Shown piece after piece: positions 9,095-59,118 of a stretch of DNA of 64,000 nucleotides. Origin of the DNA: Malacoraja senta (lineage: Eukaryota); NCBI GenBank assembly GCA_038087875.1, contig CM075988.1, positions 496,001 to 560,000 on the forward strand. Reading direction: 5' to 3'. Every line of letters starts with the position of its first letter. The stretch's first letter is position 1. The notes under the pieces are model-generated. The model did not search any database. It was not told the DNA's origin and was given only the letters and a program-made list of their open reading frames with translations. Position numbers and translations under genes: made by a program.

Positions 9095-9635
9095 TCAGAA
9101 AAAGGATTCCCCCGGGGTAATTTTGTTTTGCAATGCCCCATAGGCTCTTTCCACCATCCCAGATGCCTGTGGGTGATGTACACAGTGAAATTGCTGTCCG
9201 ATATAAAAATGTGTACATATTTCCTTATTAATAGTGGCAATAAAATGGGGACCATTGTCCGAGCTTATGACAGTAGGTAGGCCAAACCTGGGAATAACTT
9301 CCCTTAACAACAATGTTACTGTAGTCTCAGCAGTATTATTAGTGGTTGGTAGAGCTTCAATCCACCTGCTAAATAAATCTAAAATCACTAAGCAATATTT
9401 ATAACACTGGGCCCTTGGCATTTCAATAAAATCAATCTGTATGCATTCAAACGGTCGTGATGGCATTGGCATCACCCCTGAGGGTATCTTAATTGGTTTG
9501 CCTGGATTACTTCGTTGGCAAATTTTACATTCAGAGGCCTGCTTCAGTGCCTCTTGCCGGATTTTCAGGTGCCACCACGTTTCCTTTGTCATCCTTATCA
9601 TTCCCTCCTTACCAGTATGGGTAAGAGAATGAATA
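9095..9635 (-). pseudogene. ERV1 integrase (zinc finger plus DDE core), truncated
   Basis: HSLTH...CKIC zinc finger; IQIDF, SSDNGPHF and QASGMVER catalytic motifs. Confidence 0.92.
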
Positions 9636-9699
9636 TATGTTAGTCAGACGGGGAAAAATGCATCGTATACACCAACTTGTCCAAGCGGGGTGAGCCGAA

Positions 9700-12358: not shown

Positions 12359-13257
12359 CATTGTCCTCATATTTGGTTCTGGATTCAGAAAGAAACCCAA
12401 TTAGGTCACACCCAATTGTTTCCAGACTAATGAAAGGAATCTTTAATTCCAAACCACCGAACCTAGGTACATGACAATCTGGGATGTAAGTGTGGTACTG
12501 AAACTACTTTGTGAATGGTCACCAAGAATGGTCACCTTTGGCCAAGCTCAGTATGAAAGTATTCATGCTTATGGCATTAGTGACAGCACAACGAGTGCAA
12601 ACACTTGGAAAATTACAAATAGATAGTATGGAAGTAACTGAAGACAATGTTACATTCTATATCGATGACCTACTAAAGCAAATTAGGCCAGGTGTGACAG
12701 GATTTAAAATTATGCTAGCAGCATATCCAAATGATCCTTGTCTCTGTATTAAGACATATTTATTACAATACATTGAGGTCACAAAGAATTTGAGAAATAC
12801 GGAAACTGGGTTGTTGATCACACACAAGAAACCACACAAGAGAGTTTCAATACAGACTATTTCCAGATGGATAAAAGAAGTCTTAACAGCTGCTGGTATT
12901 AACACTTATGTTTTTACATCTCACTCGACTAGGGCAGCAGAAACGTCGGCGGCCAGGGCAAAAGACGTTCCCGTCGACCATATCCTCGCAGCCGCTGGGT
13001 GGTCCAATGAGTTGATGTTTCAACATTTTTACCATCGGCCTATTGTTAATGCGGGATTGTTTGCAGAAACTATTTTAAGTTCTGTGTAAATTCCTCTGGT
13101 TTAAAGGGGATCTGATTAATTTCATTATTGAAATGAATTACTGCATTTGTGGTACAAATGTTATTATGAATGCATGATTGATTATTCTCGTTCTGAGTCA
13201 ATCAATGCAGTGAGAAGCCGGGATTGATCTACGGCATGAAATCACAAAGCTTTAAAA

Positions 13258-41100: not shown

Positions 41101-42079
41101 GGGCTAACTTAAATAATCCTGGGGAAACGCTTCTGTTTTCTGTTCTAGGATTGTATTAATAAGTTTTGTGGCTAAAGTTTGTTTAATCCATGGAGTAAGG
41201 TGAGTGCCTGGTGTGCACTCCCGGAGGTAGGGTTGGAGGCACATGCAACAGTGACATTTAAGAAACTTTGGGAAAAGGCAGGTGGAGGCATTCCCAAGAA
41301 GTCCAATGTCTGTAATATGGTCGGATGTAGAATCGGTACTGCGCAGTAGCCTATGGGAGAACCGTCAACAAGTCTAACAACAGACATGCTGTGGATCGTT
41401 TCACTATTCCGGCATTTGTGATTTAATATTCCATCTCCGCTACCACTAACGCACCTCATCCTTTCATGCTACGGGACTTGTTGCATTGTGGAATTAAGCG
41501 CGGGGCTCTAACACAATGATCAATCAGACAATGCTTATTGACTCGTTTTGCATGTTTTGTCTTTCGTTTGGGACAGCCCAGTACAGCCCAGAATGTGAGC
41601 TGGAAATTTGGACTATTTTATCTGCGTTTAGCAGATTAGAAGATGTTTGTTGTACAGAATGTTGTGAGAATGTCTGTGGTGAGGGGAGAAAATGGTGGCA
41701 GATAAAATGTTGTTGTGAGTATAGTTCACCGGCTGCAATATTGCGAGTCATAAGGCACTGCCTCTAGATACACCAATAACTGATTAGTATTGAGGAGTAG
41801 TCACTTTTCTCTCTCTAATTAGGGTTTTCTGTACCCGGGAACAGAATAAGCCCAGTAGACGTGCATTGCAGACTGAGCAATTGTGGGTAAAGAGAAGGAT
41901 TGCATTGAGGTCAAGTTGAGATGATCCATTACCTCAATGAATTATGGCATCGGCTCCAGACTGACTGTTGTCTCATTCTCCGGAGCTCCCGTCAACTTTC
42001 TTAAAGGCAGATATGACAGACACTTGCAAAGCTGTTTGGCACGGCCATCTGTGGTTACATTTTAGCTCCATCAATAAAT

Positions 42080-42085
42080 TATAAA
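42080..42085 (+). promoter_or_regulatory. Candidate TATA box of the defensin-like gene
   Basis: TATAAA 94 nt upstream of the ATG; a GATAAATA at 42114 is an alternative. Confidence 0.35.
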
Positions 42086-42173
42086 GAGAAACATCATTTA
42101 GGAGTCACTGTAGGATAAATACTTGAACGCTGCCTGGTGAGTGTCGCGCCCTGTTGCAGCCCAACTGGATCTA

Positions 42174-42264
42174 ATGGATGTCCTGCTCTTGCTGTTTGGA
42201 GGCATGTTGCTGCTTCACACCACCACTGCCGGAAAAAAAACTCTATCAGTATTCCTAACTGGAG
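42174..42264 (+). CDS. Beta-defensin-like precursor, coding exon 1 (signal peptide plus short pro-piece)
   Basis: MDVLLLLFGGMLLLHTTTAGKKTLSVFLTG followed by a phase-1 donor GAG|GTGAGA; ATG context CTAATGG. Confidence 0.75.
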
Positions 42265-42790
42265 GTGAGACAAGATGTGAATCTGTTAACTTTCTTAATC
42301 TAGGCAACTGCTGGCGGGGATCCACCCAGATCTCAACCGTAGCTCCACGATCTTGGGGGTGATCGCTCTTTTAGTTTGATTTGGATCAAAAATACTAGAG
42401 CTGAGCAAGATAGACCACTCCTGCAAAATCCAATGGACTGACGTGTAGTACGCAAAGGAGCATAACTTCCGCCATTTCAGTAAACCCGACCCGACTTCAG
42501 TTATGCCTCTCGCAGTGTAATCAACGCTGCGGGGGAACAGTTTGTGTTTACGATGTTTATAGTATCTCTACTTGGACACTATGTAATATTATGTTTATTA
42601 TAATACACTTATAATACTATGTTTATAGTATCTTTGCTATAGTATCTTTGATTTGCATGTTGGTGGATTGCTGCGCTGTGAAGTCTTTCATTGAATTCCA
42701 GAATTGGGGGCGACGCGGGATTATGCATTTGTGAAAGTCACCCGGTGCCTCATGTTTACTGTGCATCCAAGGCATGCAGGCATCACATGT

Positions 42791-43771
42791 GAAACATAGA
42801 AACATAGAAACATAGAAAATAGGCACAGGAGTAGGCCATTCGGCCCTTGGAGCCTGCACTGCCATTCGATATGATCATGGCTGATCATCCAACTCAGTAT
42901 CCCATCCCTGCCTTCTCTCCATACCCCCTGATCCCTTTAGCCATAAGGGCCACATCTAACTCCCTCTTAAATATAGCCAATGAACTGGCCTCAACTACCT
43001 TCTGTGGCAGAGAATTCCACAGATTCACCACTCTCTGTGTAATAAATGATTTTCTCATCTCGGTCCTAAAAGACTTCCCTCTTATCCTTAAACTGTGACC
43101 CCTAGTTCTGGACTTCCCCAACATTGGGAATATTCCTGCATCTAGCCTGTCCAACCCCTTAAGAATTTTGTAAGTTTCTATAAGATCCCCCCTCAATCTT
43201 CTAAATTCTAGCGTGTACAAGCCGAGTCTATCCTGTCTTTCTTCATATGAAAGTCCTGCCATCCCAGGAATCAGTCTGATGAACCTTCTCTGTACTCCCT
43301 CTATGGCAAGAATGTCTTTCCTCAGATTAGGAGACCAAAACAGTACGCAATACTCCAGGTGTGGTCTCACCAAGACCCTGTACAACTGCAGTAGAACCTC
43401 CCTGCTCTTACACTCAAATCCTTTTGCTATGAATGCTAACATGCCATTTGCTTTCTTCACTGCCTGCTGCACCTGCATGCCTACTTTCAATTACTGGTGT
43501 ACCATGACACCCAGGTCTCGTTGCATCTCCCCTTTTCCTAATCGGCCACGATTCAGATAATAGTCTACTTTCCTGTTTTTGCCACCAGTGGATAACCTCA
43601 CATTTATCCACATTATACTGCATCTGCCATGCATTTGCCCATTCACCCAACCTATCCAAGTCACCTTGCAGCCTCCTAGCATCCTCCTCACAGCTAACAC
43701 TGCCCCCCAGCTTCGTGTCATCCGCAAACTTGGAGATGTTGCATTCAATTCCCTCGTCCAAATGATTAATA
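42791..43771 (-). mobile_element. CR1 LINE (family B), 5'-truncated, antisense in the defensin-like intron
   Basis: (GAAACATA)n tail at 42791-42818; RT C-terminal ORFs 43414..43800 and 42894..43490. Confidence 0.92.
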
Positions 43772-43994
43772 ATGAAAAAGGGCAAAGCTTGCAAATGCAC
43801 CGTGGACGGCCGATGGGAAACTGTTCTCTCTCGCGGCCGATCATTAAGTCCGTGTAGTCAGGAACGAACTATGCCGTGATTTCAGCGGGAAGGGGAGCAG
43901 TCACGCGAGTGGTTCTAATTCCTTGCAGATTGTTGCACTCTTTGCTTTGTACTTGGAAGCATAGGCCAATTAACATTACTTGTCTTTATTTCAG

Positions 43995-44113
43995 TGTCCT
44001 TATTAGGATGTGGCAAGAACAGAGAGACCTGCAGGCTCGGAGAATGCCGCGGCGGTGAGAAGTTGATTATGTCAACCTGCATCAGGGATTACCATTGTTG
44101 CAGGAAAGTTTAA
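43995..44113 (+). CDS. Beta-defensin-like precursor, coding exon 2 (six-cysteine mature domain)
   Basis: Acceptor TTGTCTTTATTTCAG|; the phase-1 frame gives (V)SLLGCGKNRETCRLGECRGGEKLIMSTCIRDYHCCRKV*, i.e. C-x6-C-x4-C-x10-C-x5-CC. Confidence 0.85.
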
Positions 44114-44345
44114 CCGGAACATGAAAGACAAAAATTATTGTCTGCGAAGACCAGACCAAGCGACATGTAATGGGCACAACATGCTGGAGTAACTCAGCGG
44201 GTCGGGGAACATCTCTGGAGATGATGGGTCAGTGGCGTTTCGGGTCAGATTGATTGTAGGGGGAGGGAAAATGCTCTTTAACACTCTTTCTTCAACGGTG
44301 TTGACCCCGCGAATGATATTCCTGCCCAAAGTAAATTATATTTCT

Positions 44346-44600
44346 CAAGTTCAAGTTCAAGTTTGCGTTTATTGTCACTTAACCAATTAAGGTACAGTGA
44401 AATTTGAGCTACCATTCAGCCATACTAAGTGACAAGAACACAATACACACATAAAATAAATTTAACATCAACATCCACCACAGTGTAATCAACATTCCTC
44501 ACTGTGACGGAAGGGAGTAAAGTTCAGTCATCTTCCTTGTTGTTCACCTGTGTTCGGGGCCTTGAACCCTGCGCACTTGCCGTTGCCGACAGTCCGAGCC
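44346..44600 (-). mobile_element. Rex1/Babar-type 3' UTR fragment (a similar copy lies at 45226..45420)
   Basis: CAAGTT/CAAGGT repeats followed by TTTATTGTCAC..ACCAATTAAGG.ACAGTGAAATTTGAG in both copies. Confidence 0.55.

Positions 44601-44710: not shown

Positions 44711-44712
<2 letters not shown>

Positions 44713-44756
<44 letters not shown>
44713..44756. repeat. (GT)n microsatellite
   Basis: Perfect dinucleotide run. Confidence 0.98.
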
Positions 44757-44757
<1 letters not shown>

Positions 44758-45225: not shown

Positions 45226-45420
45226 AGGTTAAGTTCAAGGTTCAAGGTTTCAAGGTCAGTTTATTGTCACATGTACCAATTAAGGGACAGTGAAATTTGA
45301 GTTACCATACAGCCATTCTAGGTGAAAAGCAACAAGACACACAGTCACATGAACTAAAATTTAACATAAACACCCACCACAGCAGCTTCCCGCATTCCTC
45401 ACTGTGATGGAAGGTCACAA

Positions 45421-47550
45421 AGTCAAGTCGAGTCAAGTGAGTTTATTGTCATGTGTCCCTGGTAGGACAATGAAATTCTTGCTTTGCTTGCGCACAATGA
45501 ACATAGTAGGCATTTACTACAAGGCATTCTATAAATATATACACAATGGTCAATATACTGATAAAGTGCAAATAACAGTATTGGCTAGTAAAGTTCAGTG
45601 TTATGTCCGAGCCAGGTTTAATAGCCTGATGGCTGTGGGGAAGTAGCTGTTCCTGAACCTGGTCGTTGCAGTCTTCAGGCTCCTGTACCTGCTACCTGAA
45701 GGTAGTAGGGAGATGAGTGTGTGGCCAGGATGGTGTGGGTCCTTGATGATGCTGCCAGCCTTTTTGAGGCAGCGACTGTGGTAGATCCCCTCGATGGAAG
45801 GTAGGTCAGAGCCGATGATGGACTGGGCACTCAAGTTGCCGAACCAAGCCACGATGCAACCGGTCAGCATGCTCTCTACTGTGCACCTGTAGAAGTTAGA
45901 GAGAGTCCTCCATGACAAACCGACTCTCCGTAATCTTCTCAGGAAGTAGATGCGCTGATGTGCTTTCTTAATAATGGCATCATTGTTCTCGGACCAGGAT
46001 AGATCTTCAGAGATGTGCACGTCCTGGAATTTGAAGCTCTTGACCCTTTCAACCATCGACCCGTTGATATAAACGGGACTGTGGGCCCCCATCCTACTCC
46101 TTCCAAAGTCCACAATCAGTTCCTTGGTTTTGCTGGTGTTGAGGGCCAGGTTGTTGTGCTGGCACCATATGGACAGTTGCTCGATCTCTCTTCTATACTC
46201 TGACTCATCCCCATCAGTGATACGTCCCACAACAGTGGTGTCATCAGCGAACTTGATGATGGAGTTCGCACAATGTCCGGCTACGCAGTCATGAGTATAG
46301 AGTGAGTACAGCAGGGGACTGAGCACGCAGCCTTGAGGTGCTCCGGTGCTAATTGTTATCGAGTCTGACACATTTCCACCAATACGAACAGACTGTGGTC
46401 TGAGAGTGAGGAAGTCGAGGATCCAATTGCAGAGGGATGCGCAGAGACCCAGTTCTGCGAGTTTGGTAACCAGCTTTGAGGGGATGATTGTGTTAAATGC
46501 CGAGCTGTAATCGATGAATAACAGCCTGACATATGAGTTTTTGTTGTCCAAGTGGTCCAGAGCGGAGTGGAGGGCCAGCGAGATCGCATCCACCGTTGAT
46601 CTGTTGTGGCGGTAAGCGAACTGCAGTGGGTCCAGGTTTTTGTCAAGGTAGGAGTTGATCTGCGTCATGATCAACCTCTCAAAGCACTTCATCACCACAG
46701 GCGTTAGTGCCACAGGTCGATAGTCATTGAGGCACGTTACCTTACTCTTCTTGGGCACTGGTATAATTGATGCCCTTTTGAAGCAGGTGGGGACCTCAGA
46801 CCTCAGAAGTGAGAGGTTGAAAATGTCTGTAAAAACTCCAGCCAGTTGGTCCGCACAGGTTTTTAGAACGCAACCAGGTATACCATCAGGTACAGGCGCT
46901 TTTCAAGGGTTCACCCTTCTGAAGGATTTCCTGACGTCGGCCTCTGTGACTGAGACTGAAATACCATCACAGCGAATGGGGGCGCGGGAAGGCACATCGG
47001 TGTTCTCCCTATCAAAGCGTGCGTAAAACGCATTGAGCTCATCAGGGAGTGATGTTTCGCCGACATTCTAGCTGCCTCCTGATTTCGCCTTGTAAGAGGT
47101 GAGTGCATTCAGGCCCCGCCACAGCCGCCGAACATCAGTCTCTTCCTCCAGTTTGGAGCAGAAGTCCCTTTTGGCCTTTTTGATGGCCTTACCAAGGTCG
47201 TATCTGGACTCCTTGTAGGCCACTGTATCATCAGACATGAATGCCCGGTGTCTGGACTTCAGAAGAGTGCGGATCTCAAAGTTCATCCAAGGTTTTTGAT
47301 TGGGAAACGCTCGGAAGGTTTTGGTGGGGATGCAGTCCTCCACACACTTCTTAATGAAGTCTGTAACGACTGCGGCGTATTCGTTCAGGACCGTTGCCGA
47401 GTCCTTGAACATTGCCCAGTCTACAGACTCCAAAGAATCCTGGAGTTGTTCCTCTGCCCCCCCCCCCCGACCAGCTCTGTACTGTCCTCACCTCTGGGGG
47501 TGCGCTCTTTAATTGCTGCCTGTAGGCAGGAAGAAGCAGCACCGCGGTAT
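45421..47550 (-). mobile_element. Rex1/Babar LINE, 5'-truncated
   Basis: ORF 45601..46758: [49 protein letters not shown]-type tail. Confidence 0.92.
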
Positions 47551-57065: not shown

Positions 57066-58215
57066 AATCAAGTCAAGTCGGGAGAGTTTATTGTCATGTA
57101 TCCCAGATAGGACAATGAAATTCTTGCTTGCTGCAGCACAACAGAATATTGTAAGCATAAATACAGAACAGTTCAGTCCAATATACACATAAATAAACAG
57201 ATAAAGTGCAATTGGCTGTAACAGTTCAGCAACTGCGATAGATCCCTTCGATGGTGGGGAGGTCAGAGCCGATGATGGACTGGGCAGTGGTCACAACCTT
57301 CTGCATTCTTTTCCGCTCCTGGACGCACAAGTTGCTGAATCAGGCCACAATGCAACCGGTCATCATGTTCTCTACAGTGCAGCTGTAGAAGTTCTAGAGA
57401 GTCCTCCTTGACATACCAACTCTCTGTAATCTTCTCAGGAAGTAGAGGTGCTGATGTGCTTTCTTTATAATTACATCAGTGTGCTGGGACCAGGAAAGAT
57501 GTTCGGAAATGTGCACGCCCAGGAATTCCCAAGTTCTTGACCCTTTCCACCCTTGACCCTTTCCATTGATGTAAACGGGATTGTGGGTCCCTTTCCTACC
57601 CCTTCCAAAGTCCACAATCAGTTCCTTGGTTTTGCTGCTGTTGAGAGCCAGGTTATTGTGCTGGCACCATTTGGTCAATCGGTCGATCTCACTTCTATAC
57701 TCTGACTCGTCCCCATCAGTGATTCGTCCCACAACAGTGGTGTCGTCGGCAAACTTGATGATGGAGTTCGCACTGTGACCGGCTACGCAGTCATGAGTAT
57801 AGAGTGAGTACAGCAGGGGGCTGAGCACGCAGCCTTGAGATGCTCCCGTGCTGATTGTTACCGAGGATGACACATTTCCACCAATATGGACGGACTGTGG
57901 TCTGTGGATGAGGACGTTGAGGATCAAATTGCAGAGGGATGCGCAGAGACCCAGATCTGAGAGCTTGGTAACCAGCTTGGAGGGGATGATTGTATTAAAT
58001 GCCGAGCTGTAGTCAATGAATAACAGCCTGACATATGAGTTTTTGTTGTCCAAGTGGTCTAGAGTGGAGTGGAGAGCCAGTGAGATCGCATCCACCGTTG
58101 ATCTGTTGTGGCGGTAAGTGAACTGCAGTGGGTCGAGGTTCTTGTCGAGGTAGGAGTTGATAAGTGCCATAATCAACCTCTCAAACCACTTCATCACCAC
58201 AGATGTTAGTGCCAC
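57066..58215 (-). mobile_element. Rex1/Babar LINE fragment, same family as 45421..47550
   Basis: ORF 57394..58233 is nearly identical to 45601..46758; same CAAGT tail. Confidence 0.9.
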
Positions 58216-59118
58216 ATGGCTGATCATCCACAATCAGTACCCCGTTCCTGCCTTCTCAGCATATCCTCTGACTCCGCTATCTTTAAGAGCGCTATCAAGC
58301 TCTCTCTTGAAAGTATCCAGAGAACCGCCCTCTGTCAGAGAATTCCACAGACTCAAACTCTCTGTCTGAAAAAGTGTTTCCTCATCTCCGTTCTAAATGC
58401 CTTACCCCTTATTCTTAAACTGTGGCCACTGGTTCTGGACTCCCCCAACATCGGGAACATGTTTCCTGCCTCTAGCGTGTCCAAACCCTAAATAATCTTA
58501 AATGTTTCAAATAGATACCCTCTCATCCTTCTAAATTCCAGAGTATACAAGCCCAGCCGCTGCATTCTCTCAGCAAATGACAGTTCCGCCATCCCGGGAA
58601 TTAACTTTGTAAACCTACGCTACACTTCGTCAATAGCAAGAATGTCCTTCCTCAAATTAAGGGGACAAAAACTGCACACAGTACTCCAGGTGTGGTCTCA
58701 CTGGGGCCCTGTATAACTGCAGAAGGACCTCTTTGCTCCTATACTCAACTCCTCTTGTTATGAAGGCCAACATGCCATTCACTTTCTTCACTGCCTGCTG
58801 TATCTGCATGCTTACTTTAATTGACTGATGAACAAGGACTCCCATATCGTGTTGTACTTCCCCTTTTCCCAACTTGACACCATTTAGATAATAATCTGCC
58901 TTCCTGTTTTTGCTACCAAAGTGGATAACCTCACATTTATCCACATTAAACTGCATCTGCCATGCATCTGCCCACTCACCCAACCTGTCCAAGTCACCCT
59001 GCATTCTCATAGCATCCTCCTCACAGTTCACACTGCCAGCCAGCTTTGTGTCATCTGAAAATTTGCTAATGTTACTTTGAATTCCTTCATCTAAATCATT
59101 GATGTATATTGTAATAGC

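Follow-up and report, generated by a model that had tools for sequence, protein, structure and literature searches.

The question raised by this locus is whether two short exons, which together encode a six-cysteine peptide, form a genuine defensin gene. The locus lies at positions 42174-44113 of a 64-kb stretch of Malacoraja senta DNA (hereafter the window, meaning the whole 64,000 nucleotides analysed), where a first-pass annotation of the sequence had proposed a beta-defensin gene. In our view, the locus is best explained as a true gene of the vertebrate beta-defensin family, both solitary and divergent, and we assign this reading a probability of about 0.6.

The reading frame starts with an ATG at 42174, ends with a TAA at 44111-44113 and encodes a product of 69 residues. 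The coding part of exon 1 (42174-42264, forward strand) has 91 nucleotides (nt), i.e. 30 codons plus one nucleotide, and specifies a hydrophobic N-terminus of the signal type; its donor reads GAG/GTGAGA, with the break at 42264/42265 in phase 1. The phase-1 intron (42265-43994, forward strand, 1730 nt, GT..AG) exhibits, ahead of the acceptor, a TTAAC motif resembling a branch site as well as a polypyrimidine tract, and the acceptor is a pyrimidine-rich tract ending in TTTATTTCAG directly before the TG of exon 2, at 43994/43995 (the intron end is also given as ATTACTTGTCTTTATTTCAG). The coding part of exon 2 (43995-44113, forward strand) comprises 2 nt, 38 codons and the TAA, its frame of 38 residues running from 43997, and it holds all six cysteines, spaced x6-x4-x10-x5-CC. 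From the first cysteine (C1) onward there are 8 K/R against 4 D/E, a net charge of +4, which becomes +6 when counted after residue 20. At the two GxC sites, glutamate and serine replace glycine, giving ETC before the second cysteine and STC before the fourth. The coordinates, splice sites, phase, length, cysteine spacing, charge counts and the ETC and STC motifs were all found exactly as the first-pass annotation had given them, and the gene that it had called intact is indeed whole in its reading frame, with no stop, frameshift or splice defect in the window. Exon 2 has no long alternative frame, the two others being open for 3 and 20 codons.

Reads of four of the 24 runs listed (X1, X23, X16 and X18) were aligned to positions 41900-44500 at 85% likeness. 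The RNA evidence comes from X23, an oligo-dT RNA-seq run on one sample of a relative species (organism C, below relative C) rather than of M. senta, of which about 5% was read. The depth in this run was about 30x over 43988-44074, about 34x over 44075-44161 and about 13x over 44249-44335, and in the unique parts of the intron it was 0 at 42683-42769, 0 at 43814-43900 and at most 0.37 at 43901-43987. Position 44011, which is 17 nt from the acceptor, is covered by 26 reads, including a 150-nt read with a single other difference; its fitted part stops short of 44037, and over 100 nt of it belong elsewhere. A depth edge at about 43995, combined with such a read part, is the signature of a used splice acceptor. 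Exon 2 is thus a real exon, which is spliced and polyadenylated in relative C. We also considered whether the edge could be a poly(A) site on the minus strand, and rejected this, as the AATAAA (43991-43986, minus strand) lies beyond the edge and the coverage shows none of the 10-30 nt extension that such a site needs. Upstream, the RNA of relative C gives a thin, unspliced coverage of 1-3x that starts before the TATA-like box described below, passes through exon 1, continues for about 420 nt into the intron and then falls to 0; this coverage (41900-42682) could be weak read-through or an overlapping transcript.

The genome of M. senta contains a large family of beta-defensin genes with which the locus can be compared. 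One exon 2 of contig C16, used as a query, retrieved at least 23 exon-2 matches, mostly on C16 and with five tandem copies on C13, and one C16 signal exon retrieved 14 matches. With at least 23 exon-2 matches in the genome, a defensin at this locus is expected rather than surprising. The loci are situated on C16 (about 8.53-8.57 and 10.10-10.87 Mb), C13 (38-195 kb), C9 (about 38.8-39.0 Mb) and C3 (C3:68350659), and correspond to L006-L009, L016 and L026-L030. In canonical members, the signal exon has 24-28 codons, the intron, in phase 1, spans 0.75-2.8 kb and the GxC motifs are present, and the best matches of the Pfam profile PF00711 (Defensin_beta) in the genome, at 37.3, 30.1, 24.9 and 22.9 bits, are clear defensin exons with GxC on C16 and C3. 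One copy, at C16:8571439, has a serine in place of the third cysteine and a long read-through tail.

Five of these paralogues exhibit a hydrophobic exon 1 of 24-28 codons with a phase-1 GTAAG or GTATG donor, and their acceptors, as read from the sequence, lie 2-3 codons upstream of C1. The beta-defensin layout that the first-pass annotation had recognised is therefore matched by the locus and by five genes of the same genome. At the donor position of the paralogues, the only GT in exon 1 is in phase 0 and would leave exon 2 with 3 open codons, so this alternative donor was discarded. The signal exons of the window gene and of the family share the pattern V-L-L-L-x-F...L-L-x-H...G-x-K, although the window exon is six codons longer. 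When C16 signal exons were searched against the window with tblastn, exon 1 was the best match for all four queries (E 0.009-0.44), and its alignment with the C16a signal exon scores 45, a value reached by none of 2000 shuffles (18.8 +/- 4.0), although shuffling destroys the architecture of a signal peptide and thereby overstates the significance of this score. A TATAAAG box (42080-42086, forward strand), located 94 nt upstream of the ATG, is a putative promoter element. A TATA[AT]A motif is present at -72 to -86 from the ATG in three of the five paralogues and is degenerate near -72 in the other two; by our own estimate, a TATA-like hexamer occurs by chance in about 5% of 50-nt spans.

The exon-2 peptide matches PF00711 from position 5 to the last of the 36 positions of the profile, with 20.1 bits and an E-value of 6.4e-4, and all seven aligned family exons match this profile. 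An isoleucine four residues before the fourth cysteine is found in all seven aligned exons, that of the window gene included. The paralogue on C3 has a 6-4-10-5 cysteine spacing identical to that of the window gene; the C16 members, in contrast, exhibit 6-3-9-5 and retain GxC, and the window gene differs from them in both respects. Its spacing lies within the range C-x6-C-x3/4-C-x9/10-C-x5/6-CC that characterises beta-defensins. Overall, the identity between the exon 2 of the window gene and those of its paralogues is only 26-31%.

The probability that such features arise by chance was estimated from the sequence. A single instance of the six-cysteine pattern in its lax form is present when all six frames of the window are translated, and among 300 simulated Markov-1 windows, in which the lax and strict forms were counted, 2 contained the lax pattern and none the strict one. 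Scaled to 1.94 Gb, the lax rate (about 0.007 per window) corresponds to about 200 chance matches genome-wide, so the cysteine pattern by itself is no proof of a gene. Strict criteria for a signal exon, which were chosen post hoc (an ATG opening a frame of 18-35 codons with a hydrophobic core, and an AG/GTRAG donor in phase 1), gave a single match in the 288,000 strand-bases of the window and its flanks (144 kb), and this match is exon 1 itself. With the donor relaxed to GTR, 36 matches were obtained, i.e. 0.25 per 2 kb.

Both exons are single copy in the genome. The word depth of exon 2 in two DNA runs (X16 and X18) is 32-57, similar to that of its unique flanks, single-copy bins in these runs having a word depth of about 30-80. 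The first-pass annotation had raised the possibility that exon 2 belongs to a high-copy repeat, and we ruled this out on the basis of its single copy and word depth.

Contigs of relatives E and F span both exons, and the exon-2 frame and the six cysteines, whose loss in related species, together with the lack of any spliced transcript, would have spoken against the gene in the eyes of the first annotator, are conserved as far as the differences listed show. The frame is intact in all three relatives, with no insertion or deletion in C and E and a +1/-1 pair five bases apart in F. Among the differences listed, the six cysteines and the stop codon are retained in C, E and F, and the change at C1 (TGT>TGC) is synonymous. 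Between relative C and the window, at least 13 of the 119 bases of exon 2 differ, in 8 codons, 4 differences being synonymous and 9 non-synonymous; 352 further differences lie outside those listed, so all these counts are minima. Relative E has 11 of the 13 differences of relative C. In exon 1, the changes listed are G20E, in all four runs, and L24I, in C and E. The substitution pattern of exon 2 is compatible with a fast-evolving peptide and equally with neutrality, and the data as a whole fit the window gene being a fast-evolving family member. The loop of five residues between the fourth and fifth cysteines (44081-44095) differs between the window, C/E and F, i.e. three versions over four species, and contains 4 of the 8 codons that set C apart from the window, which makes it a possible hotspot of diversifying change.

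The predicted fold also resembles that of beta-defensins. An AlphaFold2 (AF2) model built with a seven-row defensin alignment has a mean predicted local distance difference test score (pLDDT) of 76.9 and three strands (residues 10-14, 21-27 and 32-37). In the PDB, its best Foldseek matches are spheniscin-2, with a template modelling (TM) score of 0.77 and a root-mean-square deviation of 1.6 over 38 columns, and human beta-defensin 1, with TM scores of 0.73-0.77; human beta-defensins 2, 4 and 6 and the bovine BNBD-12 are also among the best matches. The three nearest clusters in the ESM Atlas are beta-defensin families (PF00711 and PF13841), at 0.85, 0.80 and 0.75, the top one having 177 of 256 features in common with the peptide. 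These likenesses are consistent with a beta-defensin but owe much of their strength to the cysteine framework.

Several results weigh against this conclusion, and a first set of them concerns the use of exon 1. Its depth in X23 is only about 2.4-3.4x, roughly one tenth of that of exon 2, and the 3-4 reads there extend over the intron at 42272-42301, which indicates that they have not been spliced. The joint 42264^43995 is absent among the 15 joints listed, beyond which repeat-dominated tables contain 1207 further joints and 5509 further loose ends. In this sample of relative C, the predicted exon 1 is therefore not the main 5' partner of exon 2. Of the splice proposed by the first-pass annotation, the acceptor at 43995 is thus borne out by its use in relative C, whereas the joint itself was not seen and the exon-1 reads proved unspliced. 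The main rival explanation, which we regard as somewhat unlikely, is that exon 2 of a beta-defensin-derived locus is transcribed from another 5' exon, with exon 1 unused or a decaying relic. Such an exon could belong to a second promoter situated 5' of 41900 or be derived from a repeat within the intron, and the locus would then yield something other than the 69-mer. The true product could have no signal peptide, or the transcript could be non-coding if the phase differed, as exon 2 read in phases 0 and 2 is open for 3 and 20 codons. Apart from the imbalance in depth and the exon-1 reads that cross the donor, this explanation accounts for at least one read with about 108 nt or more upstream of the acceptor that is not placed on exon 1, and the repeat bins at 42335-42595 and 42770-43813 could hide the exon in question. 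The contig of relative E also has 11 gap letters somewhere within 41900-42332, and exon 1 could therefore be broken in that lineage. Against a relic stand an exon 1 that is intact and family-like in its signal sequence, its strong phase-1 donor and the TATA-like box at -94, and no second signal-type exon with a strong phase-1 donor is present in 144 kb. The RNA that would make exon 1 appear unused stems, moreover, from another species, a single tissue and 5% of one run, and the joints listed are the same small, repeat-dominated part of the total.

A second set of adverse results concerns the homology of exon 2. Its PF00711 score lies 0.9 bit below the gathering cut-off of 21, although an evident C16 paralogue, at 19.0 bits, is likewise below it, and in the genome-wide search the locus ranks 19th of the 24 matches listed, with 18.3 bits and E 6.7, among stop-containing rows. 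The Pfam comparison suggested by the first-pass annotation thus gives a match, but a marginal one below the cut-off; with PF13841, the locus is not among the 21 matches in its own genome. A hidden Markov model (HMM) of six paralogues gives 11.5 bits and E 0.043 for the trimmed peptide, and the untrimmed stop-to-stop open reading frame (ORF) is not listed at E<=100 among 3377 ORFs. Neither the C16 exon-2 query (23 matches) nor the C16 exon-1 query (14 matches) retrieved the locus. It is also the only one of the seven aligned exons without both GxC glycines, the first of which is kept in five of the other six and the second in all six. These glycines are frequent in beta-defensins, not universal, so that their joint loss weakens the case for family membership but does not rule it out, and it is in line with the divergent lineage that the first-pass annotation had considered. 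Since the locus is missed by the C16 queries, differs in spacing and is solitary, it appears to be a separate lineage within the family rather than a gene of C16 type. The structural comparison that the first-pass annotation had suggested gave the expected three strands and beta-defensin look-alikes, but all Foldseek E-values are at least 0.87 and the AF2 model, being conditioned on a defensin alignment, is no independent evidence. Furthermore, 4 synonymous against 9 non-synonymous changes give no sign of purifying selection, and the chance of all six cysteines being kept when 8 of 39 codons are changed is about 0.23 (hand calculation). It could be argued from the low rank in the Pfam search, the weak leave-one-out HMM, a non-synonymous to synonymous ratio near 1, the hundreds of lax patterns expected per genome and the lack of a homologue in two protein collections that exon 2 is the last exon of a transcript that is unrelated or does not code for protein, the cysteines and the signal ORF being coincidences selected by a very large scan. 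We consider this improbable, as the motif begins 5 codons past a used acceptor, ends 3 codons before the stop and occupies the one frame that is long in this expressed exon, while the phase and position of the intron are those of the paralogues, exon 1 resembles those of the family and has no second candidate in 288,000 strand-bases, the isoleucine four residues before the fourth cysteine is found in 7/7 exons, and the look-alikes by fold and language model are all defensins. A recent pseudogene in M. senta, intact in sequence and silenced, for example, by the insertion of a long interspersed nuclear element (LINE) in the intron, is very improbable indeed. The LINE at 42790-43772 is recent and absent in relative F, and the RNA was obtained from relative C instead of M. 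senta, but the gene bears no stop, frameshift or splice-site defect and the orthologous exon 2 is expressed in relative C. In general, intronic LINE fragments are common and mostly tolerated.

For a genuine beta-defensin gene, we infer how exon 1 is used, how the signal is cleaved, how the disulfides pair and how the peptide acts against microbes as follows. Exon 1 would encode a cleavable signal peptide, with the cut probably around residues 19-20, where the small residues T-A-G precede it, as judged by the -3/-1 rule. Removal of the phase-1 intron of 1.7 kb, which the recent LINE insertion enlarged, would join it to an exon 2 encoding a short pro-piece and a 34-residue domain with six cysteines and a net charge of +4. 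This domain would fold as a three-stranded beta-defensin with three disulfides, presumably in the C1-C5, C2-C4 and C3-C6 pairing of that family, and the secreted peptide would most likely serve host defence as a cationic peptide that acts on membranes or as an immune signal.

With regard to known proteins, no entry of 29-93 residues sharing three 5-residue words with the peptide was found in a word-indexed collection of 5.8 billion clusters, and at lengths of 94-2000 residues there were 2 candidates, neither of which scored. This fits the first-pass suggestion that the gene is probably unannotated. A canonical C16 paralogue used in the same search found no annotated relative either, so the blank result for the window peptide says little. 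A phmmer search over 1.84 billion representatives gave two matches, which were rejected as homologues: they are long repetitive proteins of 482 and 332 residues, matched in 9 and 6 stretches, respectively. A literature search found no paper on such a gene, a result from which absence from print or from genome annotations cannot be claimed. In part of a 2019 review of fish immunity, the antimicrobials given for cartilaginous fish are transferrin, squalamine and kenojeinin, and no defensin is listed there (PMC6795676).

The surroundings of the gene are rich in repeats. The intron contains a high-copy repeat (42335-42595), with a word depth of about 1.2e5-3.4e5 in X16 and X18, and a LINE fragment on the minus strand (42790-43772), a reverse-transcriptase remnant with a word depth of 1e6-4e7; the ORF at 43414-43857 (minus strand) matches RVT_1 with E 1.1e-4. 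In a contig of relative F (X18, record 20), 42789 is joined straight to 43773 and the LINE is missing, which indicates a recent insertion; this lineage-specific element could serve as a phylogenetic marker. Downstream of the stop codon, the probable 3' untranslated region (44114-44460, forward strand) is covered in part by the RNA reads of X23 and contains a high-copy repeat (44162-44248) and sequence resembling a short interspersed nuclear element (SINE). The SINE-like repeat is present in two copies, at 44340-44470 and 45230-45370, separated by a (GT)n microsatellite (44712-44757), and the first copy provides the only AATAAA past the stop codon (44455-44460, forward strand), a putative poly(A) signal read from the sequence.

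Elsewhere, the window holds many retroelement remains (RVT_1, endonuclease, integrase and tyrosine recombinase). A tyrosine-recombinase ORF at 12502-13089 (forward strand; Phage_integrase, E 2e-9) and an integrase core at 9095-9643 (minus strand; rve, E 1e-18) represent DIRS/Crypton-type and long-terminal-repeat-type remains amid LINEs. In two LINE reverse-transcriptase ORFs, at 45601-46902 and 57394-58233 (both minus strand), the sequence just past the reverse-transcriptase domain has a Pfam match to ALKBH8_N, with E-values of 3e-11 and 3e-6, which looks like a Pfam model capturing retroelement-derived sequence. An assembly gap of 200 N is situated about 10-20 kb upstream of the window (C12:476001-486000, L043). 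No further defensin exon was found in 144 kb around the gene on its contig of 27.95 Mb (C12).

If the peptide is made as predicted, a repertoire that is poorly charted gains a further defensin, one that is unannotated and unusually divergent. The larger point is the big family of two-exon beta-defensin genes with a phase-1 intron in this genome, which is useful for dating the origin of the family. Current views are not overturned by these results, as beta-defensins are expected in jawed vertebrates. The window gene offers a natural test of whether the fold needs the GxC glycines. It could further be proposed, although we find this doubtful, that the gene founds a distinct beta-defensin lineage of several related species, which would tolerate the loss of both GxC glycines and have a long hydrophobic pro-piece, a very fast-evolving loop between the fourth and fifth cysteines and switchable 5' exons, one of them the canonical signal exon, giving secreted and non-secreted forms.

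Among known systems, the alpha-defensin cryptdin-4 (7rc7 and 1tv0) provides the only PDB matches by sequence, at insignificant E-values of 1.2 and 2.9, and the shared C-R-x-G-x-C...CC segment is a resemblance only; alpha-defensins are mammalian and have a different cysteine spacing and connectivity. The beta-defensin family of the same genome shares with the window gene its two exons and the phase-1 intron a few codons before C1, but is arranged in tandem clusters, whereas the window gene is solitary within at least 144 kb on C12. The vertebrate beta-defensins, such as spheniscin-2 and human beta-defensin 1, exhibit the same 6-4-10-5-CC spacing in a cationic domain of about 34 residues. In contrast to them, the window peptide has E and S in place of the GxC glycines and an unusually long hydrophobic stretch of about 16 residues from the likely signal cleavage site to C1. 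Nevertheless, the succession of signal exon, phase-1 intron and mature exon is the same in both, and the three-stranded fold predicted for the window peptide has its best PDB matches among them.

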